Origin: Bacteroidales bacterium
GTDB lineage: Bacteria > Bacteroidota > Bacteroidia > Bacteroidales > UBA10428
Direction: 5' to 3'
Assembly: GCA_050295515.1 (NCBI GenBank)
Contig: JBNKPU010000207.1
Span: 1,358 to 65,357 of the forward strand
Length of the DNA stretch: 64,000 nt
Shown in pieces: positions 39,386-55,627 of the stretch. The notes beneath the pieces were generated by a model. The model searched no databases, was not told the origin of the DNA, and worked only from the letters and a program-made list of their open reading frames with translations. Position numbers and translations under genes: made by a program. How positions within the stretch are numbered: position 1 is the stretch's first letter; each line of letters opens with the position of its first letter.

Positions 39386-40000
39386 TTAATTATTAGATTT
39401 CCAAATATTTTCCTTTTGTCTTATTATTGCTGAATAATAAATTTTCGATAACTCTGGAAGATCAAAATCAGGAAGAAAAAAATGCTTTACTTTCATAGTA
39501 GAATCCATCAAAAAAATATAAGTCCCTTCACTTTTTTGTTCAAAAGGCAAACCTAAATTTGAACATGAATAAATTGCAAAAGGTATATTATTTATTTGTT
39601 TAAAAACTTCAAGTTTCCTTGCACTATTATGGGTTGTAAGGACCATAATATTTTTATATAGTGTGCTGTCAACTGATTCTTTTATTCGAATCAGTTCCTC
39701 CTCAACACACATACCACAACCCTTTTCTGAACTACGTATTACAATTTTAAATTCAGAATTAAACAATGAGGATAATGGTTGCTTTAAACCTGAAATATTA
39801 GTAACCATTAAATCGGGATCAATATAAATTGATTCATTTGATATTGATTCAAAGAATAATTCATACAACTTATTATCCAAAAGTTTATTTATTTCCTGTT
39901 CTTTTTGACATAGTTGTTGATTGTGATTTAGAACAAGATATTTAACGCAAATAAAAGCATTTAAGAAAAGAAGTATTAAAATAATTATATTTCGTTTCAT
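39386..40000 (-). CDS. Cassette A: membrane-anchored thioredoxin-fold CxxC protein
   Basis: N-terminal TM anchor. FKIVIRSSEKGCGMCVEEEL is a beta-strand-CxxC-helix arrangement. Paralogous in layout to 47045-47638 and 53454-54098. Confidence 0.65.
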   Translation of the reverse strand: MKRNIIILILLFLNAFICVKYLVLNHNQQLCQKEQEINKLLDNKLYELFFESISNESIYIDPDLMVTNISGLKQPLSSLFNSEFKIVIRSSEKGCGMCVEEELIRIKESVDSTLYKNIMVLTTHNSARKLEVFKQINNIPFAIYSCSNLGLPFEQKSEGTYIFLMDSTMKVKHFFLPDFDLPELSKIYYSAIIRQKENIWKSNN

Positions 40001-40009
40001 ACAACAATG

Positions 40010-41278
40010 TTAAAATGTTTTTAGGGTTTTAATAATTAATATCGGGTTATCAGTTGGTTTTATCTTATGCAATTTTGCAATATCTTCATGAGAATAATTG
40101 AATTTTAAAGAGTCAATGTAATTTGTAATTTCTTTTTTATTAAATGAAATACTCAAATTATTGAAAATTGCTTTTGTACTTTCTTTTAACAAGGACGAAT
40201 TAAAGGGATAGACAATCATATCTTGTAATGCATCAATATTATAGGGATCAAAATAACTAATAACATAATTATCAGAACAATAACACAACATTCCTGATAA
40301 AATACCTTCTATATCATTTAGCCAAAAATTATAAGACTTAAAAGTATGTGATTGTTTCGAATAAAAACCGTTGTAAACTTTGCCTTTAAAAACGTAATTT
40401 AAGTTCAAATATCTTGATGTTTCATAGAAACTACTTAAATATGCATACTGTGATTTTCGCAGGTTCTTTTTAAATTCTTTAATTCCTTGTTTAAAAAAAT
40501 CATTAGGGATAGTAAAATCCTGAAAATCTATTGAATACTTACATTTTAATGTATCATTATTTATTGAATATATTTTATTTGAGTATCCAGGAGAAATTAA
40601 AACTTCGCCTTGGCATTTATTAAAAAAATGAAATCCGCCTTTACTAGGTTCATCTGTTGTATAATAATTTAATGCTTTATATACTACTCTACCTCTATTA
40701 TCAATAATTAAAAAATTAAAATCAGTATTACTTATCTGCTTGAGTCCTAAATCTAGATACAAAGCATATCTATTTTCATCTAAAATTTCAAAGGATTTAA
40801 TGTAATAATCGAGTCTCAATGATCTTTTATGTTCACCATTAAAATCATAAAAAAGAATTTTTTTAAAAGTATTACACCATATTGCCACTTCCTTATTTAA
40901 AGGATCAACAACCATATCATTGGGTTCGTCATACTCACCGGGTCCCTTTCCGAGCATTCCTATTTTATGTATGAATTTTCCATATATATCGAAAACCAAA
41001 ACAGTTTTACTTTGTACTTGATCTAGAATAAATATTTTATTATCACAAAATTGTAATTTATCAATTCTTCCTATTAATGATTGATCGCTAGATTCTAAAT
41101 TTACTATTCTTACACTATCAAAAATTTCAGAATAACCTCCAAGTTTTAATTCCTCTATATTTACAATTGGAATGTTAATACAATTCCTATCGTCAACATA
41201 ACCGTTTTTCGTTGTACACGAGACAAAGCAAAACGTTAAAAAAAATAATTGTATTATATTTTTCATTTTTGCATACAT
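40010..41278 (-). CDS. Cassette A: 6-bladed beta-propeller lipoprotein (DUF5128/BF3164-like)
   Basis: Lipobox FCFVSC, GKGPGEY motif, KIFILD...VLVFD..GKF, C-terminal DNPILII. The track start at 41311 would run through the hairpin/T-run at 41285-41309, so the ATG at 41278 or 41266 is preferred. Confidence 0.75.
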   Translation of the reverse strand: MYAKMKNIIQLFFLTFCFVSCTTKNGYVDDRNCINIPIVNIEELKLGGYSEIFDSVRIVNLESSDQSLIGRIDKLQFCDNKIFILDQVQSKTVLVFDIYGKFIHKIGMLGKGPGEYDEPNDMVVDPLNKEVAIWCNTFKKILFYDFNGEHKRSLRLDYYIKSFEILDENRYALYLDLGLKQISNTDFNFLIIDNRGRVVYKALNYYTTDEPSKGGFHFFNKCQGEVLISPGYSNKIYSINNDTLKCKYSIDFQDFTIPNDFFKQGIKEFKKNLRKSQYAYLSSFYETSRYLNLNYVFKGKVYNGFYSKQSHTFKSYNFWLNDIEGILSGMLCYCSDNYVISYFDPYNIDALQDMIVYPFNSSLLKESTKAIFNNLSISFNKKEITNYIDSLKFNYSHEDIAKLHKIKPTDNPILIIKTLKTF

Positions 41279-41284
41279 TTTTTT

Positions 41285-41309
41285 AAAAAAAGAAGAGGTC
41301 TGTGACCTC
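41285..41309 (-). terminator. Hairpin plus U-run directly after peptide A (attenuator-like)
   Basis: Minus strand reads GAGGTC-ACA-GACCTC followed by TTCTTTTTTT, 12 nt after the peptide A stop. Confidence 0.55.
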
Positions 41310-41320
41310 ATCTTTAATTA

Positions 41321-41632
41321 CTAAAGGGCATCACATTTTACGTCACATTCGCTTGAATTACAAGTTCCAGACTCTGATGTTTTACAATGATAATAAGTAC
41401 CTTCCTCAGTAACAGTATAGACTCCAATACTATAACTTACAGAGCATTTATCTGATCCACAGGTTTTTCCAGATGGACCTTGCCCACTTTCCCCTGGGGC
41501 AGCCATTGCGTACTTCAATTCAAACAAAGAAGCAAAAGTATTATTACTTTTTTGACTTGAAACTTTATAGTTTATAGCTACAAGTGTAATCAGGCATATT
41601 GCAATGCCAATAATTTTCGTCATGTTTTTCAT
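41321..41632 (-). CDS. Cassette A: small secreted Cys-rich peptide precursor (NVEALA-like leader)
   Basis: 103 aa: N-terminal TM/signal, leader ..SLFELKYAMA|APGESG, then a six-Cys C-terminal region TCGSDKCSV...YYHCKTSESGTCNSSECDVKCDAL. Confidence 0.7.
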   Translation of the reverse strand: MKNMTKIIGIAICLITLVAINYKVSSQKSNNTFASLFELKYAMAAPGESGQGPSGKTCGSDKCSVSYSIGVYTVTEEGTYYHCKTSESGTCNSSECDVKCDAL

Positions 41633-41805
41633 AATAATTTTAATTTTTAATAATTTGAAATATGATTTAATACTTTAATTAACAGCTCCATATAAAGCGT
41701 GCAAAATCATTTTTAATTTTAATTTTTAATAAATACCTCCTTTCTAATTTTATAATAATTTCACATTAAAAAATGTAGATGATTTAGATAGATATATGGG
41801 ATCAA

Positions 41806-42021
41806 TCAACTATTCATAAAATCCTTAAAACTTTTCCGTGATATTACTTTTATTACAAACAACAATATTGATATAATAAGAAATGATGCTCCAATAATCA
41901 AAAGTAATTTTGAATCTGAATAGTGAATAATTTTTAAGGTTGCCCCTAATAGAAATATCAAAAAAGATATTAATCCTAAAATCACAATGTGTTTTACTTT
42001 CATTTTATTTTTATTAGACAT
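41806..42021 (-). CDS. Small two-TM membrane protein
   Basis: 71-aa ORF with two hydrophobic helices, flanked by period-7 repeats. Confidence 0.45.
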   Translation of the reverse strand: MSNKNKMKVKHIVILGLISFLIFLLGATLKIIHYSDSKLLLIIGASFLIISILLFVIKVISRKSFKDFMNS

Positions 42022-42057
42022 TTAAATATTTGTTACTTGAACTTTCATGTTTAGCAG

Positions 42058-42106
42058 AATTACCGCTAACTAATTGCTAACTACTAATTACTAATTGTTA
42101 ATTGTC
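42058..42106. repeat. Period-7 tandem repeat array (7 units)
   Basis: AATTACC GCTAACT AATTGCT AACTACT AATTACT AATTGTT AATTGTC. It overlaps the last codons (..TINN*) of the 122-aa ORF. Confidence 0.6.
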
Positions 42107-42459
42107 TTTCTAGCCGCTTTAAAACCAATTCCAACAAATATTAAAATCACTCCGAAGGTTAGGTACTCCCAACTCTCTCCGCGAATGCTTGTATAACTGG
42201 CTTTTTTAAAAAATATATAAAGAAGATTTCCAATAACAAATCCAATTCCGGTAAAAAAACACAACTTATTTAAAATACCGAGTAAATCAGTTATCTGAGG
42301 ATTTTTAGTTAGATTCTCCTTTTTAATGAATTTATCCCTGAAAAAATTCACAACCATAATAAATCCATAAATCAGGATAATTGCAAAGAAAATTTTAAGA
42401 AAAGTTTCTATGTAAATACTCCCTATGCCTGTACTTATATTAAAAGTTTGATTTTCCAT
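42091..42459 (-). CDS. Small polytopic membrane protein
   Basis: 122-aa ORF with about 4 hydrophobic helices. Its C-terminal codons are encoded by the heptamer array. Confidence 0.5.
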   Translation of the reverse strand: MENQTFNISTGIGSIYIETFLKIFFAIILIYGFIMVVNFFRDKFIKKENLTKNPQITDLLGILNKLCFFTGIGFVIGNLLYIFFKKASYTSIRGESWEYLTFGVILIFVGIGFKAARKTINN

Positions 42460-42468: not shown

Positions 42469-42559
42469 TAATTATCGATGTTCAATGATCAATTACTAAC
42501 TACTAATTGCAAATTACTAATTACTCATCATTCATTATTAATTGTTAATTGTTAATTGT
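42469..42559. repeat. Period-7 tandem repeat array (13 units)
   Basis: Minus strand reads ACAATTA x3, ATAATGA ATGATGA GTAATTA GTAATTT GCAATTA GTAGTTA GTAATTG ATCATTG AACATCG ATAATTA. It fills most of the spacer between the adaptor gene and the 122-aa ORF. Confidence 0.7.
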
Positions 42560-43651
42560 TCATTTTAAAGTACTAAGCACACAAGGCACGTCATTTCCCA
42601 AATGAAGGTTACCTGAAACAATAACCGTATCCAAGTCTTTTAAACCTTCTGTTATTACAACATGAGTACTGTTTTCCTCCCCCGTTGTTACATAATTCCA
42701 TTTAGATACTTGTTCTTTCTGATTGTACGTAAAAACTACTTTCTTACCGGTTCGCAGCACAATTGCATCTTTCGGAATAGCAAGGCATTTTTTGGGTGAA
42801 GACCTAACATAAACTTTAACTGTAACCCCATCATAGAGGGCTGAAGCGCTAGAGTTCAATTCTGCACTTACCATAATCAAACCATTTTCAACTGTAGGAT
42901 TAATTGCGGTTATCGTTCCGTTCGCTTTTAGACTTTCATTGAAAAATGTGAATGCCTGAACTTTTAATCCCTTATTTACTAATACCGATTCTTCTTCCAG
43001 AATATAGAAATCCACTTTTAGCTTACTGTTGTCAATTATAGTGCAGATAAAACCATTATCGAGGTAATTCCCTTCCTTCACATTCATATTGGCAACGGCA
43101 CCATCTATTGGTGCTTTAATATATGCAGACTGGTACTTGTTTTGAGCAATAATAAAGTCAGTTTTTGCCAGTTCAATCCCACTTCTCATTCTGGCATTTT
43201 GTAATAACTCTTTTGGCATATCTGCTATGTTTTCATCCGAGTAACCCAATGCCACAAGTTTATCTGAGAAGTCAATTTTAGCCTTCTCATACAAGACTTT
43301 CTGTCTCAAATAAGAATGGTATAATTCAAGAGTGTCCAAAATTGCAATGATCTGACCGGCTTTCACTTCCTGGCCTGTATTGACATTTATTTTAAGAATA
43401 GTTTCACTAAGCCTGGACCTGACATCTACTTTTTTTACGGCCGTTACTTTACCGTTAGCAGACAATTCTTTCGAGAAATTATCTGACTTAAGAACTATTG
43501 CCTCCACTTCAGCTGCGGTAGTGATTTGTTCAACCTTATCCTCTCCGGTTTCATCATCAGCCGCTTTTGCTCCTTTGTTACATCCGTATACTACTGCCAG
43601 CAGTAAAAACGAAAACAGAATGCTTTTAATATTAAATTGATTACTATACAT
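42560..43651 (-). CDS. Efflux RND transporter periplasmic adaptor (membrane-fusion) subunit
   Basis: Lipobox AVVYGC and a biotinyl-lipoyl-like/HlyD_D23 pattern (VKAGQIIAILD ... IKAPIDGAVANMNVKEGNY). Confidence 0.85.
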   Translation of the reverse strand: MYSNQFNIKSILFSFLLLAVVYGCNKGAKAADDETGEDKVEQITTAAEVEAIVLKSDNFSKELSANGKVTAVKKVDVRSRLSETILKINVNTGQEVKAGQIIAILDTLELYHSYLRQKVLYEKAKIDFSDKLVALGYSDENIADMPKELLQNARMRSGIELAKTDFIIAQNKYQSAYIKAPIDGAVANMNVKEGNYLDNGFICTIIDNSKLKVDFYILEEESVLVNKGLKVQAFTFFNESLKANGTITAINPTVENGLIMVSAELNSSASALYDGVTVKVYVRSSPKKCLAIPKDAIVLRTGKKVVFTYNQKEQVSKWNYVTTGEENSTHVVITEGLKDLDTVIVSGNLHLGNDVPCVLSTLK

Positions 43652-43658: not shown

Positions 43659-43742
43659 CGATTATTATTTACTCAATACTAATTGTACATTATTAATTAC
43701 ACATTACACATTGATAATTACTCATTACTAATTGTCAATTTC
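43659..43742. repeat. Period-7 tandem repeat array (12 units)
   Basis: CGATTAT TATTTAC TCAATAC TAATTGT ACATTAT TAATTAC ACATTAC ACATTGA TAATTAC TCATTAC TAATTGT CAATTTC. It overlaps the RND1 stop (..TISNE*). Confidence 0.7.
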
Positions 43743-46700
43743 TTCTTCACAAAAAACACAGGCAGCACAAACAATATCCCAATTATAGAAAACACTAGCC
43801 CGCTGCATGTAGCGACCGCCAGTGGAAACCAGAAATCTTCTTTTTCACCGGCCAGCAAATAGGGCAGCATACCAATTAAGGTCGATAGAATGGTTAAGAT
43901 AATAGGAACTATTTTAGCCCGGTAAGCTAAAAAGTAAGCCCGGTTTCCCTTCAATCCTTTCTTTTTAACATTATTCAGTTCATTGATAATATAAATGGCT
44001 GAGTTTACTGTTAGCCCACATAACAAGATCATGGCTGAATAACCTCCCTGGTCAAAACTTATTCCAAAGATACGGAAAGTCAGAAATACACCGATAAAGG
44101 TAACAGGAATCAGGGATATTACTGCCAGTGGTTGCCAGAGCGATTCAAACAATACAGCACTTACCATATAAATAATTAAAACAACAAAAAAAATCAAGGC
44201 AGTCTGCCTGTTCTTTTCTTTGCTACTTTGATAAACATATTGCCTGTTTTCAATCTTATATCCCATCGGCAATTGATTTTCATATTTTTCCATAAGCTCA
44301 TCCAGAACTAATTTTCCCAGCTGGTATGTTCCAATAAAGTCCCATTCGACAAAAACAATGTATTGTTGGTTTTGCCTATTTATAGAGGTAGAAGTTTTTT
44401 GTTTTGAAATATCTGCAATCGCATTGGGTTTAAACAAGGTTGTATTTGCCGGCAATACCGAATTTTCTAATTGCCAGTAATCGAAACTGCCAGCGGCACT
44501 GGAAGATATCACCAGGTTTTCAGAATTCCCGCCATTATTTATTGTACCAAGATAACGTTCTTCTGTAGTGATGAGGCTTAGGTAATTTGCCAGGTTCCTG
44601 TATGCGGTATTTTTAAAGGCTACCTTTTCCCGATCAGCCCTAAGAACATACTCCCAACTTTTATCCCGATAGTAACTGTCAGATCCCATGATATTAGCCT
44701 CCTTTATCCGAGGGTTTTTTAGTAAACCCTCCCTGAGTTCTTCCGCATATCGGTATACCTGCCCGTAATTATACCCTAATAATGCAACCTTATAATTACC
44801 AACTCTTTCCTGCATTGAATTATTAAATCCATCGCCTTGTCCATATATCCTGGCATCCAGGCTTGAAAAACCAATAGCTTTTGATATTAACTCATTCTGC
44901 AGAAAGAAAGGAAAAGAAGTAAATTCATGTTCCGGTTTAAAGGTTATAACCATGCGGGCATTATCTGTTCCATATATGCTTGATTCAAAACGGTCAATCT
45001 CCGAATATTGCTTCAGGTAATTCTCGATTTCGATAAATACCTCGTTCATCTGTTCAATAGTAGCGCCGTCTTCCATAGAAGCATGCATAACAACAGAGGT
45101 GCGTTGCCTTTCGTTGTAAAACCTGCCATGGTCTACTTTTTTAACGAAGGCACGAAGCGTACCCCCGGTGATTTTTTCAACGACAGGACCAATGGACCTT
45201 GTATAAACATCACTTCCCAGTGTCTTGTTGTACATGTGCCCCCAGAAATTATCTTTCTCGATTTTGTTCGGCAACAAAAAAAGCGGCAGACCAAAAGAGA
45301 AAACAAGTACAACAACCCAAATCCACCTGAAACGGATGAAGAAGCCAACAATACGGGGATAAATTTTATTTATGGGAAGTACGCGCTTTTTCCTCTTATA
45401 GTATTTGCCATTTATGGCTTTGGTATACACCGGTACTTTTTCGATAAGCGCAGGAATAAAGAACAGTGCGACAAACAATGAGACAGTAAGGTTTACGATT
45501 AAAACAACTGCAAAATCGAGCAGGTTAAGCTGAGCTCTTTGATCCAGAAAAAAGATAACTGACAGTGATGCAATTGTGGTCAATGTCGAGGCGAAAACCG
45601 CCATAAAGACTTTTCGATTCTTTTTGTGCCTTATATGATCGGTCATAACAATGCTGTTGTCGATTAGTAGCCCAAGCGACACAGTTATACCGGCAAAAGA
45701 GTACAGGTGCAATTGTACACCAAGCAAGTAATAGATAAAGAAATTGATAGCCAGATTGCACAGCAGGCTAAGCGAGATTACCAGCATATATCGCCAATTG
45801 AGGGATATTAAACCCGTAAACAGAAGCAAGAGCAACAGAGCTAAAACAGTCCTGCGGACTATCTTGCTAATTTCTCCAGAAATATATTCGGTATTATCAT
45901 GCATTAGTAGCATTCCGATGTTCTCAGGCAGGCTTTTTTCAATATCATCTGCCTTGTTCTTTACACGTTCGGCGAGTTTAACCTGGTTTTGTCCTTCTTC
46001 CGGATAAACCACAACAGTTATATTCTTCTTTCCGTTTAGCCGGTAATAACTCCTTGCTATTACCGGTTCCCTTTTAACAGTTGCAATATCCCCAAGATAA
46101 GTTATATGCCCTTCTTTACTGGTATGCACAGGCACCTTCAACAAATCGGTTGCCGATGCGCCGTTTAGTCCTTTAACAACTATTGTTTTTTGATTTTCAC
46201 CATTAACCGGGGCAAGCCCCAAAGGCAATTGTATCAACTCAAGCCTAACCGTGTTAAGCAATTCATTGTAGTTTATGCCAAGATTTAACAACTTGTTAAT
46301 ATCAACTGAAATATTCCATTGAAAAGGTGTAATTCCGTGCATTTGCACCTGCCCTACTCCTTTTATTTGTTGCAAGGGGTCAACAATGCTTTCTTCAATT
46401 AACTGGGACAATTCTTCATTTTTTTCATCTGCCATTACCATATATGTGAGAACTGGACGCTGATCGGAAGCTTGTCCACCTGCCCATACCCCGGGGTAGC
46501 TCACTCCATTGGGCAAGGACGGATATAGTGTGCTGATCATTTGGGATACTTGGTAGCTAACAAGGTTCACATCAGCTTCTTTATTTAGCTCAAGGTAAAT
46601 ATTGCCCCAACCGTTTCCTGAGGTGGAATTCACATTTTTGACCTCAACGATTAGCGACAATTGAGCTTCCAGCACCGAAGTAACCCTTTGTTCAATCCTT

Positions 46701-46861: not shown

Positions 46862-47044
46862 ATAAAATTGTACAATTGTATTTTAAAATACCTAGATTTC
46901 TTATGAAGCAGTTAGATTATTATTCGAACCCTTTTCAATGCCACAAGTCAAAGACTTGCTGCAGCTAGAGAGATGGTTGACATACATCAGACACATTTGC
47001 TTAAATCTGAAAAAAAAACATTCTAATGGTTTCCTGAGATGTAT

Positions 47045-47648: not shown

Positions 47649-48863
47649 TTAAAAATTTTTGAATTTATAAAAGAAAAGTACTGGATTATCTAAAGGTGAT
47701 ATGTTCTGGATTTTTTCGAGGCTTGAATTATTTGATAAAAAAACCTTAAAACTTTCTTCTGGAAGTATTTCTTTTAATTGTTCGAAATATTTATTTAAAT
47801 AAAGAGCACTTAACGAAGATATGAAATAGCCTTGGTGATTTCCAAGTATAAATTTATTCCAAGCAGGAAATATTATATCATCTTCAATTTCACCTTCTCC
47901 AATGATAAAGTGTTCACTCTTTTTGTCATAATAACAGTTTTTTAGACCATTTCCCAATGTAAATGAAATTGCAATCGTCGAGTCATTTTCATAAAAACCA
48001 TCAACTCCTAAAATGTAATTTTCATATTTATCTGGATTTTTGGGAACATCTTTAATTAACATGCTTGGGAGTAGATTATGTTCTCCAAAATCGAGAAAAT
48101 ATTTTTTTTCTATTTTGTTATTATCAACTGAATAAACATACTCATCATAAAAATCTAAATAATTTAAATTAGAACCTGATTTGAAAAATGCCTCAGTCTT
48201 CATAAGATTTGTTTCAAGATATTCTTTAGGAAAAGTTATGAATCTTCTAATAATACTTCCTTCTGAATCAGTATAAAATATCTTAATTCTTTTCTTGCCT
48301 TTATTCATTAAAGGATTATAATGATTGTTGAATATGTAAGTATTGCTATCAACATAACTTAAAAAATCAGCCCTGAAGTTATTTTCTAGTTTTTTTTCTG
48401 AGACTAATTCCCCTGTAAAATCATATGATATTAATGTGTGTTTAAATTGACTCATAATGACTATTGTATTGAGAGTCTTATTTATTGTAAAGTCTGCAAT
48501 TTGCCGGTACTCACCTGGACCTTTCCCTTCATTAAAGATTTTTAAGATAAATTTTCCTTTCTCCGAGAAAACAAAAATAGCATTACTATTTCTGTCTAGA
48601 ATGAAGATTTTATCTTCATAATAGCAAATTTTATTTATTTGGCTCAAATATTCTGTTGTATCCAGTTTAATACAGTAAAATTCTTTTATATAATCGGAAA
48701 TAATCTTATGAGAAGGATCCATATTTCCAATTTTTTCTAGTTCTATCCTTTTTACATTTGTATCATCCGATTCACTTATATAATTCTTGCTACAAGACAT
48801 CAAAATGAAGACTGGAACAATATAAACAATTAGGAGTTTTCCTGACTTGGTTAATTTTTTCAT
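47649..48863 (-). CDS. Cassette B: 6-bladed beta-propeller lipoprotein
   Basis: Lipobox ILMSC, GKGPGEY, KIFILDRNSNAIFVFSEKGKF, C-terminal DNPVLFF. Confidence 0.75.
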   Translation of the reverse strand: MKKLTKSGKLLIVYIVPVFILMSCSKNYISESDDTNVKRIELEKIGNMDPSHKIISDYIKEFYCIKLDTTEYLSQINKICYYEDKIFILDRNSNAIFVFSEKGKFILKIFNEGKGPGEYRQIADFTINKTLNTIVIMSQFKHTLISYDFTGELVSEKKLENNFRADFLSYVDSNTYIFNNHYNPLMNKGKKRIKIFYTDSEGSIIRRFITFPKEYLETNLMKTEAFFKSGSNLNYLDFYDEYVYSVDNNKIEKKYFLDFGEHNLLPSMLIKDVPKNPDKYENYILGVDGFYENDSTIAISFTLGNGLKNCYYDKKSEHFIIGEGEIEDDIIFPAWNKFILGNHQGYFISSLSALYLNKYFEQLKEILPEESFKVFLSNNSSLEKIQNISPLDNPVLFFYKFKNF

Positions 48864-49004: not shown

Positions 49005-49487
49005 CTAGCAACTTGCACTAAAACATGATTCTGAAGAACCATCTCCACACTTTTGCACATATTGTGTAATTTCCTTTTTTTCAGAATACGTAACACCACC
49101 ACCAGTAGAACTTACATTTAAACCTACTGTACGTTCCTCTCGTGTAAGACATTTATAATCATAAGGGTAATAATCACCAGGTGTCCCGTAATCATCACCC
49201 CAGTAATCGCTGAAACCTGTTGCATCATAGCTTATAAAGTTGCCTGCTGCATCATAGGCATCGCTTAATGAGAAAGTAGATTGCCCTGAGTAATAATCCT
49301 CATCAAAATAGTATGTTATACCATTTTGCGTGAAAGTAATATAGCTTTTGCCTTCGGTTGATACTTGAGCAATAGCTTTCTTCGCTCGAAGATCTAAGGT
49401 TGAATTTTTGGAGTTAATATTTATAGATAGGTTAAAAGCCATAACTCCTACAACAGAATACAATAATACAAATTTAATAATTTTCAT
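49005..49487 (-). CDS. Cassette B: secreted Tyr/Asp/Gly-rich peptide precursor with Cys-containing C-terminus
   Basis: 160 aa: signal/TM, leader ..LDLRAKKAIA|QVSTEG, C-terminus ..YDYKCLTREE...QYVQKCGDGSSESCFSASC. Confidence 0.6.
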   Translation of the reverse strand: MKIIKFVLLYSVVGVMAFNLSININSKNSTLDLRAKKAIAQVSTEGKSYITFTQNGITYYFDEDYYSGQSTFSLSDAYDAAGNFISYDATGFSDYWGDDYGTPGDYYPYDYKCLTREERTVGLNVSSTGGGVTYSEKKEITQYVQKCGDGSSESCFSASC

Positions 49488-49570
49488 TTTTTAATAATTT
49501 AATGTTTGTTTAAATAATCTAGTAATCTAAATAAAAAGGATATAACCCCTTAATTTCTAACTATTTATTT

Positions 49571-50403
49571 ATCTTTGTCACCTCACCTCCTTTCTTCTTT
49601 GTCCGCCATAGCAATGCGACGGCGGAATGGGTTTAGGAGCCGGGCAGGACAAACCTGGTATCGCAAATACTCCTGAGTTTGTTCCTGCCTTTTTTGTCTC
49701 CATTTTTATAGTTGTTTAACTTTCTTGTGCATGTTAACTTTTGCAATAACATTACATAGCCATTTCTTAAACCTTGCGTTAAGGAAATAGTACAATCAAA
49801 TTGTTATGTTTAATATTCTTTATCCGAAAAGTCAATTAGAAAAACCAAAGCCTAAGTATACATGAATAAAAGAAGCATATTCATTTAATAAAATGTAGCA
49901 GGTGGCACAATAGTTCAAAAAAATGACAATTAACGGTTTATTTTACATTTAGGTTTGTATTTTCATTTTTGAGTTGGGTTTTAGATTTATTTATGGATTT
50001 ACTATTATTTAATAATTAACATGTTTTTATTGACTGCAATTTTATTTTTCACAAAACCAGGAAATTCAATCTCACAATTTTATTGTGCATACCTAAGCAA
50101 TAGCTTTCAGAATCTCCTATTGTACAATTTTAAAATAACATCTTGACTACACACCCCGAAGGTTATGTGGGTCAAATATAGAAAAAATCCGTTCTTTCGC
50201 AATTGTACCTGGGTAACAAAAAAAAGTATTTCCGTAACATTTCACCCTAAAACATGCTTATATAGCTTCATTATAATCGGTTTGCAGGTATCCATTTATG
50301 TTTATTCTACAATTTGATCAATATTTTATTTTCGTATCTAAATAATTCATAGCTCATATTTAGTTTATTATTCCTAAAGGTGTATGAGGGAATGTATATT
50401 AAA
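49571..50403. repeat. Long non-coding direct repeat, copy R1 (pairs with 55785-56631)
   Basis: By-eye alignment gives about 95 percent identity over the first roughly 430 nt and high identity over the last roughly 200 nt, with a diverged middle. No ORF of 60 aa or more. Confidence 0.85.
49583..49695 (+). ncRNA. Candidate small RNA or structured element inside R1
   Basis: A -7 box TATCTTTG (49570-49577) sits at the exact left edge of the repeat. The pyrimidine-rich 5' end is CACCTCCTTTCTTC. There is a hairpin TCCGCC/GGCGGA. A long hairpin GGCAGGACAAAC/GTTTGTTCCTGCC (49643-49689) is followed by T6. Confidence 0.35.
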
Positions 50404-50594
50404 TCCTCACCATCCAGAGGTAATACTTTTGGCTCTAACTCTAAAGATTTTATTTTAACCTTAGATCCTTCCAATTCTCGTTGTGATTTTTACTGGAACA
50501 ATTCATCAAGTAGTTTGTGAGATAATATTCCTATTAACAGTACTGTGACTAGAATAACTGTTGAATTTTGGATCCTGACTATTAAGATTATTTG

Positions 50595-50751
50595 CTCTAA
50601 TTAGTGTTTGTCAATAAAGTCCAACTACTGCGTTATTGCTCAAAATTTAAATCCTCATATACACAAGTATACTGCGATTTAAATTTTTCACACGCCTTGT
50701 ATTTGAACTTTATTCCTCAAACCCCCGACTTTATGGACAGACTCTAATTAG
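50595..50751. mobile_element. MITE-like element with 10-bp target-site duplication
   Basis: CTCTAATTAG occurs at 50595-50604 and 50742-50751. Terminal inverted repeats are TTTGTCAATAAAGTC (50607-50621) and the reverse complement of GACTTTATGGACAGA (50727-50741), matching 13 of 15. An internal 11-bp hairpin AAATTTAAATC/GATTTAAATTT is also present. Confidence 0.45.
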
Positions 50752-51063
50752 AGTTGTTAGATTATTAGGCATATCAGTTTTTTTGTTAAGCTCAAGGTAT
50801 ATATAGCCACAACCGTTTCCGGAGGTGGATTTCACATTTTCAACCTCATTGATTAGCGACAATTGTGCTTCCAGCACCGAAGTAACCCTTTGTTCAATCA
50901 TTGCCGGTGATGCCCCTGAATAGCCAAAAGAAACCCTAATACTCGAATTGCTATACGATGGGTATAGCTGCAAAGGTATCTTGAAAACCAATGCCAAACC
51001 AGCAAGCGAGAGCATGGTGAAGATGGTGATTATGGTGAAGCTATTTGAGGTTTTTCGGGGCAT
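50731..51063 (-). pseudogene. Truncated duplicate of the RND1 5' end
   Basis: MPRKTSNSFTIITIFTMLSLAGLALVFKIPLQLYPSY... aligns with RND1 residues 1 to about 97. By-eye nucleotide identity is roughly 85-90 percent. Homology stops near 50770, followed by unrelated sequence and a stop. Confidence 0.8.
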
Positions 51064-51179: not shown

Positions 51180-51629
51180 TCATAAATTTGTGGCTGTTGG
51201 TATAGCATATTCCAGCATCTCCTTTATGCTACATTTAATAAACAAGTTGTTATATTCTCTTTCCGTATTTGATCTGATGCTTATAACTTTTCGTTGAAAC
51301 CCTAGTTCTTTATCTTTTGTGTTAAAATCTATTGATAACTTTGTTGAGTCCCCTGGCAAGACTATATTAGTGTCAAGCATGAATCCAGTACAGCTACATT
51401 CAGGAGACACTTCCTTTATAATTAATTTTTCGCGTCCAAGGTTTTTAACGAAAAATATTGCATGAACCAAAGTATCATTTGAAATTGTACCAAAATCAAT
51501 TACTTTCTTTGAAAACCCTATTTGAGTTTGCACATTATCTACCTTTTCATTAGATATCTCATGTTTATTTTTAATATTACAACTATAAACATAAAAAGCA
51601 ATTAAAAAAATCCAATATTTTTTTTTCAT
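51180..51629 (-). CDS. Cassette C: DUF1573-like lipoprotein
   Basis: Lipobox YVYSC. FGTISNDT...FFVKNLGREKLIIKEVSPECSCTG...LPGDS matches the DUF1573 pattern. It has a 4-nt overlap with propeller C. Confidence 0.75.
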   Translation of the reverse strand: MKKKYWIFLIAFYVYSCNIKNKHEISNEKVDNVQTQIGFSKKVIDFGTISNDTLVHAIFFVKNLGREKLIIKEVSPECSCTGFMLDTNIVLPGDSTKLSIDFNTKDKELGFQRKVISIRSNTEREYNNLFIKCSIKEMLEYAIPTATNL

Positions 51630-52831
51630 ATTAGCTCATCTTTTAATTTCATAAGTATAATTATTGGATTATCTTCTGGAGTAATTGTACCTAGCCCTTC
51701 AACTATTTTATATTTTTCGCCAGGACTATACATAAACTCATTAGCAGGTATAATAATATTTATCAGATAATTTTCATGCCAGATTTCATGATATATATTA
51801 CTGCTTCTTGTACTAAAGGTCACATAGGCTGGAAAATCGGATATGTCATTTTCTATCATCCTGGCATGAAATGTTTGATTCTTTTCTTTTAAAACTATAT
51901 ACTCTGCTGGATATCTATTGTCTTTGCTTTCAAAAAAGTTATATGTTATAGCCAAAATTTTTGTGTTATTTATTGTCAGCACAGGTAAAAAAGCTTTACC
52001 CTCAGCCTTTTCATTAAGATAAGCCATTTGCTCTTTAATTGATTGCTTCCCTATAGAGTTGTCTATCCCATAACCCCCAAAATCTACAGAAAACACTGGA
52101 AAAGCTGTTAAATCCTGTATCTGATAAAAATTATTGTCATACATTATCGAAACGAACAGTTCATTCTTGTCATTGATTGTTAAATTCTCTTTAATAGCAG
52201 AAAATGAAAGATTATTATTATCGATTTTTTTATCAAACAAGGTTTTCTTTACTTTGTTGTTTCTAACTATAACAAGGCCAGCATTAGTCTTCTTTCCATT
52301 AATAATATTCTGGTTTTGTTGTGTGGCAAAATAATATGTGTTATTGATTTTTCTTGAAGAATTAGAAAATACAGGATCCATATCATTTTTATCAATAAGG
52401 TTAAAGGATAAGTTCGAATATTTTATAAATTTTCCTCTCCTGGTAAATACTTCAATAAATTCTTCATTATCATCAATAAAAACTCCAGCGAAATTTAAAT
52501 ATTCATCAGGACCCTTGCCTCTTTTATCTAATTTCGAAACATAATTTCCCTGTTTATCAAATACAAAAACCACCATCTGACTTACATCACACGCGTATAT
52601 ATATTTATTTTTAATTATTAATTTTGCAATCCTGCCCATCACACAATTTGAATCTGTTTGCAGTCTAATGTATTTTACAGAATCAACAAACTCAGACAGC
52701 TTAACCTTTTCTTGTGCTTCTATTGGATTAATTTCTAAAATATTTAAACTGCTATTTGTTTTGTTTTCAGCATTGCATCCTGATATCAGTAGTCCAATAA
52801 ACAAAAAACCAATAATTATCTTCATATCCAT
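51626..52831 (-). CDS. Cassette C: 6-bladed beta-propeller lipoprotein
   Basis: Lipobox LLISGC, GKGPDEY, VVFVFDKQGNY, C-terminal DNPIIIL. Confidence 0.75.
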   Translation of the reverse strand: MDMKIIIGFLFIGLLISGCNAENKTNSSLNILEINPIEAQEKVKLSEFVDSVKYIRLQTDSNCVMGRIAKLIIKNKYIYACDVSQMVVFVFDKQGNYVSKLDKRGKGPDEYLNFAGVFIDDNEEFIEVFTRRGKFIKYSNLSFNLIDKNDMDPVFSNSSRKINNTYYFATQQNQNIINGKKTNAGLVIVRNNKVKKTLFDKKIDNNNLSFSAIKENLTINDKNELFVSIMYDNNFYQIQDLTAFPVFSVDFGGYGIDNSIGKQSIKEQMAYLNEKAEGKAFLPVLTINNTKILAITYNFFESKDNRYPAEYIVLKEKNQTFHARMIENDISDFPAYVTFSTRSSNIYHEIWHENYLINIIIPANEFMYSPGEKYKIVEGLGTITPEDNPIIILMKLKDELI

Positions 52832-52928: not shown

Positions 52929-52953
52929 AGGTGCTCTATTAAAACGAGCACCT
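52929..52953 (-). terminator. Hairpin with U-rich tail after peptide C
   Basis: Minus strand reads AGGTGCTC-GTTTTAATA-GAGCACCT followed by ATCTTTTAAT, 9 nt after the stop at 52962. Confidence 0.5.
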
Positions 52954-52961
52954 GTCATTAT

Positions 52962-53234
52962 TTATTCACATGTACATCCCCAATCATTACATACTGGGGT
53001 GGTTTCACCATCGCAGAATGTTGCTGTGCAATCAACTCTTTGCTTATATTCCCATTTACCAGTATTCGGATTATAAACATATTCAGTTATATACTTTGAA
53101 CACGAATTACAACTTGAACCTTCTGACTGTGCAAAAGCTATTGTTTGATTTGCATCATTTGTGAAAACTTGAACATTAACAAATAATACAGTAAGGACTG
53201 CAAGTGAACTTATACTTATTAAAATTTTCGTATC
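52962..53234 (-). pseudogene. Cassette C: Cys-rich peptide gene lacking a canonical start codon
   Basis: Own translation: (PDT)KILISISSLAVLTVLFVNVQVFTNDANQTIAFA|QSEGSSCNSCSKYITEYVYNPNTGKWEYKQRVDCTATFCDGETTPVCNDWGCTCE*. There is no ATG/GTG/TTG between the in-frame TGA (53235-53237) and the hydrophobic segment. It is absent from the ORF track. Confidence 0.45.
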
Positions 53235-53453
53235 AGGTCAGTTTAGGTCAACAAATAGAGCTTTCAGATTTGCCGTATTAAGATCTGTCGCAGATACGGT
53301 GTTGAAAAATGACATGAATGTTCTAAACTCGTTGAAAATTATTGCTGGCTTGCAAACTGATCTGCAACCATTTTTTTAATTATAGTGCGCATTCTAAGAT
53401 AAGTATGAATTACTGTACGTCTAATAATTTCTCAGCGCTAATGCTAATAAAAC

Positions 53454-54098
53454 CTAATTATAAAAATCATCCTTATTTCGTGAATATAACTTAGAAATTG
53501 ATCTTAGATATTTTTGAGTTAAGTTACTGTCAATCTCATTTGTTTGAAACAAGAAATGAATACTAAAATCTTTATCCAACATCATAAGGTAATTCTGATA
53601 CATTTCTAAATCCGGTATATTCAGTGAAGTACAATAAGATTTAACACCTATTAATCTTTCATAGACACCTATTTCAGCTTTTCTCTTACTATCTATCAAT
53701 ACAACCATGCCTGTCTCGGAGATTCTATCATTTTCTTTTCTCAAAAGTAACATAAGATCATCAATACAGGTTCTACATGAAATACCAGATGAATAGAGCA
53801 CTAGCAATGGTAAATCATTTTTTAGATCAGCCAAATCCCGTTTATTGTTATCTTTATCAAATAGAGTAGCTGTACTATCTAAATAATACTTATCGTATTT
53901 TATAAAATCAAACAGCCTATTTTCCATCTGGCTTATTATTTCTTCTTTTTCTTTCAGTAAACTTATCTGATTAATATTTTGTTGAGTTCGCTGATACTTT
54001 TCCTTAAAATACAAAAAAAGCAAATTACAGCACAGGAGGAAAAAGAATAAAAAAATAAAAATTACAACCCCCTTCTTTTTTAACACTGAATTATTCAT
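53454..54098 (-). CDS. Cassette D: membrane-anchored thioredoxin-fold CxxC protein
   Basis: TM anchor; LPLLVLYSSGISCRTCIDDL (CxxC). Confidence 0.65.
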   Translation of the reverse strand: MNNSVLKKKGVVIFIFLFFFLLCCNLLFLYFKEKYQRTQQNINQISLLKEKEEIISQMENRLFDFIKYDKYYLDSTATLFDKDNNKRDLADLKNDLPLLVLYSSGISCRTCIDDLMLLLRKENDRISETGMVVLIDSKRKAEIGVYERLIGVKSYCTSLNIPDLEMYQNYLMMLDKDFSIHFLFQTNEIDSNLTQKYLRSISKLYSRNKDDFYN

Positions 54099-54100
54099 AC

Positions 54101-55252
54101 CTATAACCCGTTTAATTCATATATTAGCAAAATTGGATTGGAATTAATATTAACCTTTATTTTCTCAAGAGCTTCAAATGTTTGTTTTGATATCATTCCA
54201 TCAGCATAAAGACTGCCTAACTCCTTTAAATAAAATGGCTCCAGGATGCAAACAAATTTGTTGTTGTTTGTGCAATTTATTTGTGTAAATGGGTTCATTC
54301 CCCCACATACAAATCCGCCGGTTTTTTTTGAAAAAAACAATTGTTTTATTTCCCCTTTTTGAATAAAGGTAAAATAGTAGTAATCTTTAGTCTCATGGAA
54401 ATTGTCAATCCCAACAGCGTAGTCACTATTCATATTATAGTCATGAATTTGTAAGGCAACCTCTTTACTAAAACCTTTGTCAATCTGGGCATCGTCGAGG
54501 GTGTTGCCCCCAAAATCGATGTGTACGTTCTCAAATAGAGAATCGTTTGCAATCTTGTAAATTGTATACGAACCAAAAGTTGGCCTTAGGTTAATGCCAT
54601 TATAACATGAATTAAACTGTTTACCTTCATAGATTATTCTTTTCAGGGGCAGATATTTATTCTCCAGCATTTTTCCTTTAGAAGACATTGTATAGATTAA
54701 AAAAGGCATTGATTTTTCATTTCTTTGCACACCAAAAGATCCTTGCCACAAATAAAACACACTACTGTTGAAACTTGCCATTTGTAGTGGGTTTAAAAAC
54801 TCGTCCTTATTTTTAATTTTAACAGATTTAACAAACCTTCCATTTAAAGTATACATAAGAATACGTTGATAAGACAACAAACATATAAGACTGTCTTCTG
54901 TTACTGAAAAATCCCTTAGCTCAATGAATTCACCTTCTCCCCGTCCCTTTGCACCTATCCGTTGAATAAAATTGCCTTCCGGTCCAAATACCAAAAGCGA
55001 ATGAGTCTGTAGGTCCTGAATAAAATATCTGTTAAACTTAAACATAGCTTTTTTTACCGAACCAATTAATAACAGTTCACTAGTCTCCAATTGTTTGACA
55101 TCAATTATGTTTAATTTTTCTTTTAAATCATTATTTGCCCCCCTTGATAAATCAATTTTTATTACTTTCTCCGATTTCTTAATTGATGATTGATTGCTTT
55201 GTGAACAAGAAGCAAAACTAATGACAATAGCCACAATAACTAAATTTCTCAT
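54101..55252 (-). CDS. Cassette D: 6-bladed beta-propeller lipoprotein
   Basis: Lipobox ISFASC, GRGEGEF variant of the GPGEY motif, LLVFGPEGNF, C-terminal SNPILLI. Confidence 0.75.
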   Translation of the reverse strand: MRNLVIVAIVISFASCSQSNQSSIKKSEKVIKIDLSRGANNDLKEKLNIIDVKQLETSELLLIGSVKKAMFKFNRYFIQDLQTHSLLVFGPEGNFIQRIGAKGRGEGEFIELRDFSVTEDSLICLLSYQRILMYTLNGRFVKSVKIKNKDEFLNPLQMASFNSSVFYLWQGSFGVQRNEKSMPFLIYTMSSKGKMLENKYLPLKRIIYEGKQFNSCYNGINLRPTFGSYTIYKIANDSLFENVHIDFGGNTLDDAQIDKGFSKEVALQIHDYNMNSDYAVGIDNFHETKDYYYFTFIQKGEIKQLFFSKKTGGFVCGGMNPFTQINCTNNNKFVCILEPFYLKELGSLYADGMISKQTFEALEKIKVNINSNPILLIYELNGL

Positions 55253-55266
55253 TTATTTTATCTTTA

Positions 55267-55298
55267 AAAGCCTAAAAAGGAGAACCTTTTTAGGCTTT
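55267..55298 (-). promoter_or_regulatory. Strong hairpin between peptide D and propeller D
   Basis: Perfect 14-bp stem AAAGCCTAAAAAGG / CCTTTTTAGGCTTT with a 4-nt loop, 21 nt after the peptide D stop. Confidence 0.55.
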
Positions 55299-55318
55299 AT
55301 TGTTTTTTTTAATTTCAA

Positions 55319-55627
55319 TCAATAACAAGTACCTGGAACGCAGTCTGTGTCAACACATGTAGTCCCTTCGTTTAGATAACAAGCTATATATAAACCCGGG
55401 ATGTATTTATGCTGGTAAGGGTGCCAAAAAGCACAATTCTGACAACTTCCCCCCCTTGGAGTATCTCCATTCTCATTTTGAGCTAGTGCCAATTTAAATA
55501 AGCTATGAAGATTAGTGTCTTGGTCACTTGTATTCATATTGTTAAATGCCAATCCAATAGCTACATTAACAAATAAAGCTAGTGCTAAGGCAGCAAAAAA
55601 TGTTCTTTTCTTGTTATTCTGTTTCAT
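55319..55627 (-). CDS. Cassette D: small secreted Cys-rich peptide precursor (NVEALA-like leader)
   Basis: 102 aa: TM/signal, leader ..NLHSLFKLALA|QNENGD, six-Cys region SCQNCAFWHPYQHKYIPGLYIACYLNEGTTCVDTDCVPGTCY. Confidence 0.7.
   Translation of the reverse strand: MKQNNKKRTFFAALALALFVNVAIGLAFNNMNTSDQDTNLHSLFKLALAQNENGDTPRGGSCQNCAFWHPYQHKYIPGLYIACYLNEGTTCVDTDCVPGTCY

Follow-up and report, generated by a model that had tools for sequence, protein, structure and literature searches.

What is the function of a three-gene cassette that is found four times in and around one efflux operon? The question is raised by a stretch of 64,000 nucleotides (nt) from a Bacteroidales bacterium (GenBank assembly GCA_050295515.1, contig JBNKPU010000207.1, positions 1,358 to 65,357; the window in what follows, with positions counted from its first letter), in which almost all genes between 27.5 and 56.6 kb lie on the minus strand. 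Cassettes A to D share one gene order: a small Cys-rich peptide comes first, a six-bladed β-propeller lipoprotein second and a membrane-anchored thioredoxin-like protein with a CxxC motif third, the last place being held in cassette C by a DUF1573 lipoprotein. A preliminary description of the locus had proposed that a disulfide-rich peptide is exported by Sec, folded oxidatively by cassette-specific proteins, freed of its leader and sent out through TolC. We find the same trio of genes across Bacteroidota, and we favor a model in which the pre-peptide would be folded by a split module made of a thioredoxin-like protein and an NHL-type propeller, released by an S26 signal peptidase and exported; we give this model, which rests on sequence and predicted structure, a probability of about 0.45. 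The preliminary interpretation stands in part. The peptides are conserved, the third gene encodes a thioredoxin fold and the S26 and pump genes lie in the same gene string, but the assignment of the peptides to the NVEALA family and the pump as a general partner do not hold.

The trio recurs across Bacteroidota

At more than 12 independent places outside the window, the trio recurs with gene order and strand unchanged, and its arrangement is therefore not due to chance. These places lie in Flavivirga (L002/L008), Chitinophaga sp. 30R24 (L003/L010), C. chungangae (L009), Sphingobacterium (L004/L005), two Mucilaginibacter genomes (L006, L007), the metagenome contigs L020 and L019, the latter with two trios, and two different loci of Bacteroides fragilis (L015/L016 and L017/L018). 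For the first B. fragilis protein, the searched collection has 1,497 indexed blocks. Genomic context was sampled at about a dozen loci, and an alignment-based locus search yielded five genome loci and one metagenome locus.

The genes around the trio differ from lineage to lineage. The neighborhood on L019 is like that of the window, with a fragmented gene for a Wzy_C protein with TPR repeats (Wzy_C+TPR), two trios, RND1, the adaptor, the TolC factor, RND2 and then a DUF1573 gene. The preliminary description had made the RND/TolC genes a general part of the arrangement; we find this link only in the window, L019 and Flavivirga, that is at 3 of the ~12 independent loci. Six loci of the Sphingobacteriia/Chitinophagia type carry instead orthologous OMP_b-brl_3 barrels of ~950 amino acids (aa; E ~1e-200 to each other) with a CarboxypepD_reg domain, which is typical of uptake receptors. 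Most of these barrel-type loci have a second propeller, Wzy_C+TPR genes are found in L003, L004 and L020, S26 genes in L003, L006 and L007, and LytTR regulators in five of the six, in one case as a fusion with a large sensor-like protein. The B. fragilis trios have neither RND/TolC genes nor an OMP_b-brl_3 barrel, nor any other linked export gene at their loci. A further locus, L021, combines a propeller with a thioredoxin-DUF1573 fusion and an S26 gene, and no leader-type peptide was found there.

The firm core is thus the propeller and the thioredoxin-like protein, usually with a leader peptide. It is often joined by an S26 peptidase, a Wzy_C+TPR protein, LytTR regulators and a component of the outer membrane. 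For the last there are two alternatives, of which the RND/TolC pump is one, and the pump is lineage-specific. Wzy_C+TPR and LytTR genes, neither of which the preliminary description had mentioned, accompany the trio more consistently than the pump does.

Several smaller observations belong to these loci. At L020 (3921-5804) and L004 (6242-8772), the LytTR regulator of the barrel-type loci stands next to or is fused with a protein of ~650-700 aa, and relatives of this large protein in L012 have transglutaminase-core and discoidin domains, which makes it a possible sensor. No LytTR gene is present in the window. Two window proteins (56876-59770 and 28512-31196) were considered as counterparts of the OMP_b-brl_3 barrel and rejected, as they have no homology to it. 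In C. chungangae (L009, 15024-18093), the barrel-type cluster is followed by a GT2 glycosyltransferase gene, a 435-aa protein without Pfam match and a second CxxC thioredoxin-like gene; the 435-aa protein, tried as a propeller, is not one, and the GT2 gene is another hint of glycan chemistry.

The pre-peptides share a type of leader and a putative cleavage site

We tabulated 13 peptides from the window and related loci. In all 13, a Lys-rich N-terminus leads into a hydrophobic segment, and a spacer of 17-29 residues separates this segment from a small-x-small site and an acidic core of 49-120 residues, mostly with 6 Cys. The hydrophobic segment is followed in 12 of them by an Asn, typically as N-[VIALYT] (judged by eye). 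At the putative cleavage site, position -1 is Ala in 12 of the 13 and Ser in the other, position -3 is A, V, S, L or M, and position +1 is Q, D, A, N or M, with Gln in the window peptides B, C and D. Gln at +1 is typical of signal peptidase I substrates in Bacteroidota (the 'Q-rule'). Leader removal, as suggested in the preliminary description, would take place at this site of the signal peptidase I type (AxA). The peptide of cassette A illustrates the common plan, its N-terminal part being Lys-rich and leading to a hydrophobic anchor that ends in the conserved Asn, and then to the spacer; that of cassette D is similar to a peptide of L019 (8195-8473).

Orthologues of the cassette A peptide are found in Flavivirga (56% identity), Chitinophaga, Sphingobacterium and Mucilaginibacter and on the contigs L019 and L020. 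Six Cys, two Gly, the Y-x-H-C of a GxYxHC motif and the leader Asn are invariant in the alignment of this family, and the orthologues from three other Bacteroidota classes retain the 6 Cys and G..GxYxHC. Conservation of the small open reading frames (ORFs) in relatives, on which the preliminary description had let its proposal depend, is thus clear. Both Mucilaginibacter orthologues have a long Ser/Gly run between site and core. The A family has one invariant His; in the B, C and D types, no His is conserved. The peptide alignments show no conserved Trp, and no cofactor-forming residue is common to the cassette types.

Does every cassette open with such a small ORF? Cassettes A, B and D do, as had been described, but C does not. 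Its frame has ACG where the paralogues have ATG, contains no in-frame ATG, GTG or TTG anywhere and is preceded by an in-frame TGA (53238-53240), so that it is not an intact ORF and position 53234, given as its beginning, is no start codon. The peptide gene of cassette C is probably inactivated.

The window peptides match no Pfam or NCBIfam family, and the profile of the A family finds no sequence relative in the PDB. No toxin-like domain was found. The preliminary description had likened the small ORFs to the NVEALA family. NVEALA proteins are small and N-terminally anchored, have an Ala-x-Ala-type motif upstream of a variable C-terminus and lie beside DUF5128 genes in Bacteroides. The likeness does not extend to sequence: none of 10 peptides (the four of the window and six relatives) matched PF14055 at E<=10, in a scan whose HMMER filters may hide matches above E ~0.1.

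A 78-aa ORF of L019 (1905-2141), upstream of the Wzy_C+TPR gene, has the same type of leader (…LELVQARA/DENSEEE, the slash marking the putative site) and no Cys. This type of leader thus also occurs with cargo that is not rich in Cys.

The third gene encodes a thioredoxin-like protein or its DUF1573 substitute

In the third gene of cassettes A, B and D, the motifs CGMC, CSEC and CRTC each follow a predicted β-strand, as the preliminary description had said, and the model of the cassette A protein supports a thioredoxin fold. This AlphaFold2 model (mean pLDDT 74.7) has a long N-terminal helix, made of a transmembrane segment and a stalk, and then the thioredoxin fold, where strand 84-90 precedes C95-x-x-C98 and helix 96-109 begins at the CxxC motif. 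The protein is predicted to be anchored in the membrane in the type-II orientation. Foldseek matched it with probability 1.0 to Bcp1, a Sco-like protein, ResA and TlpA, with target-normalized TM-scores of up to 0.66. In the alignments, Pro152, invariant or nearly so, stands where the cis-Pro loop is expected, and the profile of the family has weak thioredoxin-like matches among PDB sequences (E 0.003). At the family level, the Pfam comparison foreseen in the preliminary description gave nothing for the window: none of its CxxC proteins matches a Pfam or NCBIfam family, including the Redoxin, AhpC-TSA and Thioredoxin models. Relatives of the protein have sub-threshold AhpC-TSA matches (E 1e-4 and 2e-3).

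The family is large, and no Pfam or NCBIfam model covers it. Word-index searches with the protein or its alignment returned 3-5 matches, and an exhaustive HMMER search over 1.84 billion representative proteins was needed; it gave 2,894 representative clusters at E<=1e-3, of which 1,093 at E<=1e-10. Among the best 150 of these 2,894 matches, the CxxC motif is present in 146 of the 147 checked, and nearly all are proteins of ~190-220 aa with an N-terminal transmembrane segment. The members in B. fragilis are annotated 'hypothetical protein'. In four of the same 150 (P0153, P0169, P0191 and P0193), the thioredoxin domain is fused to a C-terminal DUF1573 domain.

The third gene of cassette C, described earlier as a DUF1573-like lipoprotein with a CSC motif, is indeed one: it matches Pfam DUF1573 (PF07610) at E 4.2e-20, with 72 bits for a cut-off of 26.1, and has the motif ECSCT. 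The substitution makes sense because thioredoxin-DUF1573 fusion proteins exist, and such fusions tie the two domains functionally. A further match of the cassette C protein, below the curated cut-off, is to the NCBIfam OS_HP2 family (seleno)protein model (E 1.8e-12, 47.4 bits for a cut-off of 100); the name of that family hints that the Cys motif may be redox-active.

The propeller is of the NHL type

All four propellers match Pfam DUF5128 (PF17170), for which the preliminary description had proposed to search, with 88-180 bits against a cut-off of 22.9, and their pairwise identity is 25-30%. The motifs noted at first sight are present, with variants among the cassettes: GKGPGEY in A and B, GKGPDEY in C and GRGEGEF in D; KIFILD in A and B; and DNPIL, DNPVL, DNPII or SNPIL at the C-terminus. 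Each propeller has, as judged by eye, a lipoprotein-type Cys after the signal peptide (VSC/T, MSC/S, SGC/N and ASC/S), and this Cys is nearly invariant in the family alignment.

The AlphaFold2 model of the cassette A propeller is six-bladed (pLDDT 88.6). Its best Foldseek match is BF0058, an uncharacterized protein of B. fragilis (PDB 4raa, E 6e-24), followed by the NHL domains of Brat and TRIM71/TRIM2, and the family profile matches NHL repeats at E 1e-33. By the fold neighbors of this model, the DUF5128 propellers are predicted to be NHL-type six-bladed binding scaffolds. We considered an enzyme role, as a peptidyl-alpha-hydroxyglycine lyase or a glutaminyl cyclase, and rejected it: the lyase appears only at E 8e-4, through the shared NHL repeats, and the top structural neighbors are binding scaffolds, with no enzyme near the top. 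The zinc-chaperone propeller AztD is among the fold matches, weakly and generically. Distant DUF5128 genes occur in arrays of 7-8 propellers without peptide or CxxC genes.

Peptidase, pump and Wzy_C genes of the operon

The preliminary description had placed a LepB-type gene in the same operon as the TolC and RND genes, and we do find an intact S26 gene with them in one tightly packed string. From RND2 through the DUF192 gene, the intergenic gaps are at most 70 nt (an overlap, then 3, 37, 70 and 19 nt). The catalytic Ser and Lys motifs of the S26 paralogue are intact (SASM, KRCIGLPGD and GDN..S.DSR). An S26 gene lies within five independent clusters (the window, L003, L006, L007 and L021), and in both Mucilaginibacter loci it is directly upstream of the peptide gene.

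A complete tripartite set is encoded together in the window, with ACR_tran permeases, an RND adaptor and an OEP/TolC factor. Both permeases fall below all NCBIfam curated cut-offs, which leaves their subfamily unassigned, and RND1 is strongly diverged in its second half. Orthologues of RND1 follow the trio in Flavivirga (8e-230) and in L019, where RND2 also has an orthologue (E 1e-259). The Wzy_C protein matches PF04932 with 71.5 bits (cut-off 31.7), and its orthologues with TPR repeats adjoin the trio in L003, L004, L019 and L020.

Signs of cassette duplication, displacement and diversification

The locus may bear traces of cassette turnover. A non-coding repeat of ~850 nt, R, lies upstream of cassettes B and D, and its two copies are 86% identical overall and ~98% identical in the proximal 430 nt. 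The truncated RND1 copy is 85% identical in DNA to 46568-46867, its homology running from ~6 nt upstream of the start codon to ~100 codons in. The duplicated unit thus reads R-[D, C]-RND1' and then R-[B]-RND1, so that R and the 5' end of RND1 bracket different cassettes. This arrangement is consistent with the homologous insertion of a new R-cassette-RND1 segment, by which the older cassettes would have been displaced upstream. The distal end of R cuts a 55-codon ORF (50307-50474).

Diversification is also found within a species. In two B. fragilis strains (L015, 8409-8720, and L016, 7158-7472), the flanks of the peptide gene are 99% identical and the leaders are identical at 43 of 44 positions, the cores at 37 of 59; the adjacent propellers differ in number and position. 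A constant leader with a diversifying core is, we infer, typical of secreted peptides in cell-cell interactions. One of these two strains has an S8 peptidase gene inserted upstream.

Within R, a structured element with ~125 conserved nt lies 60-130 nt upstream of the peptide genes B and D, and a related element is found, within the same range of distances, upstream of two peptide genes of L019 (4580-4700 and ~7540-7640), a contig unrelated to the window. Read antisense to the peptide genes, its 5' end is CU-rich (CCUCACCUCCUUUCUUC), and it has a TAtcTTTG box and a GC hairpin with a U-run behind it; in this orientation it looks like a candidate small divergent RNA with an anti-ribosome-binding-site seed. 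Read in the sense direction, it would be a candidate structured leader ending in GGAGGUGAGGUGACAAAGAUAA. The element has no Rfam match, and a simple terminator scan did not call its hairpin, the loop being too long.

Layout of the locus

Coordinates are collected in Table 1. From 5' to 3' on the minus strand, the order is R, D, C, the RND1 5' copy, R, B, RND1, the adaptor, two membrane ORFs and cassette A, and then the IVP-family protein, RND2, the TolC factor, Wzy_C+TPR, S26, the esterase-like lipoprotein and DUF192. The coordinates and the common order of the four cassettes had been given correctly before, bar the small ORF of cassette C, as had their placement: A between the adaptor and RND2, B immediately upstream of RND1, and C and D upstream of the truncated RND1 copy. 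The cassettes had also been described as more AT-rich than the pump. This is right overall (29.1% GC for the cassette genes, 37.8% for the pump genes and 34.7% for the whole window) but not for the peptide genes (33-37% GC), the AT-richness being due to the propeller and CxxC genes (25-32%).

Table 1. Features of the locus, ordered 5' to 3' along the minus strand (a slash marks the putative cleavage site)
Feature	Position	Strand	Remarks
Repeat R, copy upstream of cassette D	55783-56634	-	non-coding
Structured element within R	55785-55926	+	~125 nt conserved
Cassette D, pre-peptide	55319-55627	-	102 aa; ALA/QNENG; 6 Cys
Cassette D, propeller lipoprotein	54101-55252	-	DUF5128 E 7.3e-25
Cassette D, membrane-anchored thioredoxin-like protein	53454-54098	-	CRTC; P0058 in representative search, E 2.3e-69
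Cassette C, peptide frame	52964-53231	-	AFA/QSEG; 7 Cys; probable pseudogene
Cassette C, propeller lipoprotein	51626-52831	-	DUF5128 E 6.2e-35; stop overlaps start of DUF1573 gene
Cassette C, DUF1573 Ig-like lipoprotein	51180-51629	-	CSC motif; occupies thioredoxin-like slot
Truncated duplicate of RND1 5' end	50731-51063	-	110 codons
Repeat R, copy upstream of cassette B	49569-50420	-	non-coding
Structured element within R	49571-49712	+	~125 nt conserved
Cassette B, pre-peptide	49005-49487	-	160 aa; AIA/QVSTEG; Tyr/Asp/Gly-rich core; 4 Cys
Cassette B, propeller lipoprotein	47649-48863	-	DUF5128 E 1.8e-43
Cassette B, membrane-anchored thioredoxin-like protein	47045-47638	-	CSEC; P0059 in representative search, E 2.9e-58
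RND permease 1 (RND1)	43718-46861	-	divergent, HAE1-like; Pfam ACR_tran 1.6e-112
RND periplasmic adaptor lipoprotein (membrane fusion protein)	42560-43651	-	TIGR01730 6e-42
Small polytopic membrane ORF	42091-42459	-	122 aa
Small polytopic membrane ORF	41806-42021	-	71 aa
Cassette A, pre-peptide	41321-41632	-	103 aa; AMA/APGE; 59-aa acidic core; 6 Cys
Cassette A, propeller lipoprotein	40010-41311	-	DUF5128 E 1e-52; likely start Met16 at 41266, giving 418 aa
Cassette A, membrane-anchored thioredoxin-fold protein	39386-40000	-	CGMC
23S-rRNA-intervening-sequence (IVP)-family protein	38873-39181	-	four-helix bundle; between cassette A and RND2
RND permease 2 (RND2)	35688-38747	-	Pfam ACR_tran 1.3e-163; closest to MdtB/MdtC type
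TolC-family outer membrane factor	34217-35701	-	Pfam OEP 2.6e-28; 14-nt overlap with RND2
Wzy_C membrane protein with C-terminal TPR repeats	32309-34213	-	O-antigen ligase/O-oligosaccharyltransferase superfamily
S26 signal peptidase I paralogue	31267-32271	-	PF10502 4.3e-36; TIGR02227 121.8 bits, cut-off 47
Esterase-like lipoprotein		-	894 aa; downstream of S26 gene
DUF192 protein		-	follows the esterase-like lipoprotein

No family is assigned to the two small membrane ORFs. Gene calling finds the pair again on the Logan contig L001, where an identical cassette A CxxC protein and near-identical neighbors are encoded. A 48-codon ORF (39217-39363) lies in the gap upstream of the IVP-family protein. 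AT-rich heptamer-like repeats (TAATTAG, CAATTAA, TAACAAT) at 38798-38843, 42072-42117, 42491-42564 and 43660-43747 fill the intergenic stretches that immediately precede RND2, the two small membrane ORFs and the adaptor gene.

Beyond the DUF192 gene, the same strand encodes a radical SAM/SPASM protein (17017-17844), a methyl-accepting chemotaxis protein (18610-20532), an ankyrin-repeat protein (21991-23610) and a leucine-rich-repeat protein (24725-27109). On the plus strand, a large ORF that runs off the end of the window (59822-64000) has a thioester-like YGCFEQ motif and resembles bacterial alpha-2-macroglobulin; it is preceded by a CarboxypepD_reg-domain protein (56876-59770).

A model for the cassettes and its alternatives

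How could these parts work together? In the model that we favor, Sec would insert the pre-peptide so that its N-terminus stays in the cytoplasm and its core faces the periplasm. The cognate propeller and thioredoxin-like protein would act as a cassette-specific, split version of the thioredoxin-like, NHL and β-domain module of NHLRC2 and SOQ1, the propeller binding the peptide core and the CxxC (or CxC) protein forming or shuffling its disulfides. We read the two as a possible two-part, client-specific thiol-disulfide oxidoreductase because the cassettes encode the same three parts as NHLRC2/SOQ1, with a candidate client beside them. The preliminary description had assigned no role to the propeller. 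The S26 peptidase of the operon would then cut at the AxA site and free the folded mini-protein from its anchor. In the window, the two-permease RND/adaptor/TolC pump would carry it across the outer membrane, and the OMP_b-brl_3 barrel would take the place of the pump in Sphingobacteriia and Chitinophagia; synteny suggests both the cleavage and either route of export. The Wzy_C+TPR protein, a further conserved component, may attach a lipid-linked glycan. A role between cells, as bacteriocin or signal, is suggested by the LytTR regulators, by core diversification in B. fragilis and by the displacement of cassettes in the window.

Several points weigh against this model. Proteins of the TlpA/ResA type are usually reductants. 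The putative cleavage site lies 17-29 residues past the hydrophobic core, which is unusual for signal peptidase I. Typical antimicrobial peptides are cationic, unlike the acidic cores found here. Many DUF5128 genes stand in propeller-only arrays and L021 has a propeller without a leader-type peptide, so that the propeller is not strictly dependent on a co-encoded peptide. Finally, export may lie outside the conserved function, since the RND/TolC genes are absent from most loci and the B. fragilis loci have no export gene.

The last point would be met if the small Cys-rich protein were not exported at all. It could be a stable envelope subunit bound to the propeller lipoprotein and matured by the thioredoxin-like protein, as in methylamine dehydrogenase, the pump, barrel and Wzy_C genes then serving another substrate. 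Every peptide type does have its own co-diverging propeller, the B. fragilis trios lack linked export genes, the invariant GxYxHC of the A family could mark a functional site, and MauE and MauD are tied to the maturation of the small methylamine dehydrogenase subunit (bioRxiv 10.64898/2026.03.05.709764). However, no Trp or cofactor-forming residue is conserved across the cassette types, and the propellers are six-bladed NHL scaffolds without enzyme-like neighbors. Such a subunit would also leave the recurrent links to S26, outer-membrane components and LytTR unexplained and would not predict core diversification within a species, and we regard it as unlikely.

Diversification would, on the other hand, be expected of a bacteriocin with its immunity protein. 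Here the peptide would be the toxin, the propeller lipoprotein the cognate immunity protein and the thioredoxin-like protein the folding factor of the toxin, and the propeller-only arrays would be collections of orphan immunity genes. The cassette-specific pairing, the displacement of cassettes together with the truncated RND1 fragment, the dead peptide gene of cassette C, the conserved leader and diversified core in B. fragilis, the LytTR regulators and the existence of arrays without peptides all agree with it. It is harder to reconcile with acidic cores, with the failure to find a toxin-like domain or PDB relative and with the A-type peptide, which is conserved across classes and not hypervariable; we judge it to be less likely still.

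The likeness of the thioredoxin-like protein to the reductant-type folds of TlpA, ResA and Sco-like proteins would find a direct use if the peptide bound metal. A Cys/His core kept reduced by a TlpA-like reductase would be loaded with a metal or scavenge one, be exported by the RND pump and be re-imported by the large barrel, the propeller being a periplasmic chaperone or binding protein. In the A family, 6 Cys and one His are invariant, the CarboxypepD_reg domain of the barrel is typical of uptake receptors, and AztD is among the fold matches, if generically. This reading is improbable, as the RND permeases are nearer to the HAE1/Mdt type than to the CusA/CzcA type, the neighborhood has no genes of metal regulation, the B, C and D types have no conserved His, and an even Cys number (6) fits three disulfides. 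A last reading, in which spurious small ORFs happen to adjoin lipoprotein and redoxin genes, is barely credible: no Pfam or NCBIfam family covers the peptides and the frame of cassette C has no start codon, but orthologous peptides with invariant Cys spacing are found at the same position in at least 8 other genomes or contigs, and the leader architecture is common to all types.

We return to the favored model of folding, release and export. Its components are from known superfamilies, and we did not find their combination in the searchable literature, in particular the association of a long signal-anchor leader, a dedicated S26 paralogue, a Wzy_C+TPR protein, a split thioredoxin-NHL-DUF1573 module and cassette displacement before a pump. 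Our literature search found no mention of the NVEALA, DUF5128, PF17170, DUF4934 or BF3164 families, nor of the B. fragilis gene BF0058, whose name turned up in a single pharmacology paper on another subject. The wider claim, that these loci represent an undescribed and widespread Bacteroidota system in which disulfide-rich mini-proteins with a bipartite signal-anchor leader are folded by a split NHLRC2/SOQ1-like module, released by a dedicated S26 peptidase, possibly glycosylated by the Wzy_C+TPR enzyme and exported by lineage-specific routes, with cassette swapping like that of bacteriocin or contact-dependent-inhibition loci and with versions in the gut commensal B. fragilis whose peptide core differs between strains, is one we put forward with considerable doubt.

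If the model is correct, it gives a function to three large orphan families of Bacteroidota, namely the DUF5128 propellers, the CxxC thioredoxin-like family of ~2,900 clusters and DUF1573. It would provide a genetically tractable bacterial analogue of two poorly understood proteins, NHLRC2, linked to human FINCA disease, and SOQ1, with a candidate substrate next door. Bacteroidota of the gut and the environment would be shown to secrete a new class of peptides, as bacteriocins or signals, which in B. fragilis vary from strain to strain. The model would also bear on envelope disulfide formation in this phylum.

Comparison with known systems

Heat-stable enterotoxins are exported by Sec, acquire their disulfides in the periplasm and are released in a TolC-dependent manner, using the housekeeping DsbA and signal peptidase. 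The cassettes resemble them in the small pre-pro-peptide with several disulfides and in the TolC-family channel of the same operon, export being predicted here from the genes. They differ in having a dedicated thioredoxin-like protein, a propeller, an S26 paralogue, a two-permease RND pump and a much longer leader. Sublancin and glycocin clusters encode disulfide-rich peptides with dedicated thiol-disulfide oxidoreductases and a glycosyltransferase, and the ribosomal peptide, its nested disulfides (predicted for the cassettes), the dedicated thioredoxin-like proteins and a possible glycan-handling enzyme (Wzy_C+TPR, or GT2 in L009) are common ground. However, our loci have no SunS/GccA-type glycosyltransferase and no C39-ABC exporter, their leader is a Sec signal-anchor and not of the double-glycine type, and their hosts are diderm Bacteroidota.

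As for the pump, MdtABC-TolC is an RND pump with two different permeases. The window likewise encodes two paralogous permeases, one adaptor and one outer membrane factor, and RND2 is nearest to MdtC/MdtB among equivalog-level NCBIfam models, but both permeases are far below the curated cut-offs and RND1 is strongly diverged in its second half.

Methylamine dehydrogenase offers a parallel for a stable subunit. Encoded together there are MauA, the light, Cys-rich subunit with its long leader; MauB, the heavy subunit, which is a propeller; and MauD, a membrane-anchored thioredoxin-like protein that serves in maturation. The MauB propeller is, however, seven-bladed and non-NHL, whereas that of the cassettes is six-bladed and NHL-type, and the Trp pair that forms tryptophan tryptophylquinone, MauG and MauE are absent from the cassettes. 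MauD-type relatives of the thioredoxin fold act in oxidative maturation (bioRxiv 10.64898/2026.03.05.709764).

The comparison on which our model draws most is with NHLRC2 and SOQ1, which combine a thioredoxin-like domain, a six-bladed NHL propeller and a β-stranded domain (PMC6107167; bioRxiv 10.1101/2021.03.16.435614). SOQ1 is membrane-anchored, works in an oxidizing compartment and has its redox motif at the interface between thioredoxin and NHL domains (PMC6107167), and its C-terminal β domain is like the N-terminal domain of DsbD (PMC6107167; bioRxiv 10.1101/2021.03.16.435614). The cassettes encode the same three parts: a TlpA-like CxxC thioredoxin, a six-bladed propeller of NHL repeats and, for the β domain, the Ig-like DUF1573, which has a Cys motif and whose likeness to the DsbD N-terminal domain is an analogy only. 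Structure and profile searches with the thioredoxin-like protein and the propeller gave no sequence-level match to NHLRC2 or SOQ1 chains. The parts form one polypeptide in NHLRC2 and SOQ1 but are separate genes here, where only thioredoxin-DUF1573 fusions are seen, and to these parts the cassettes add a co-encoded peptide that is a candidate for their substrate.

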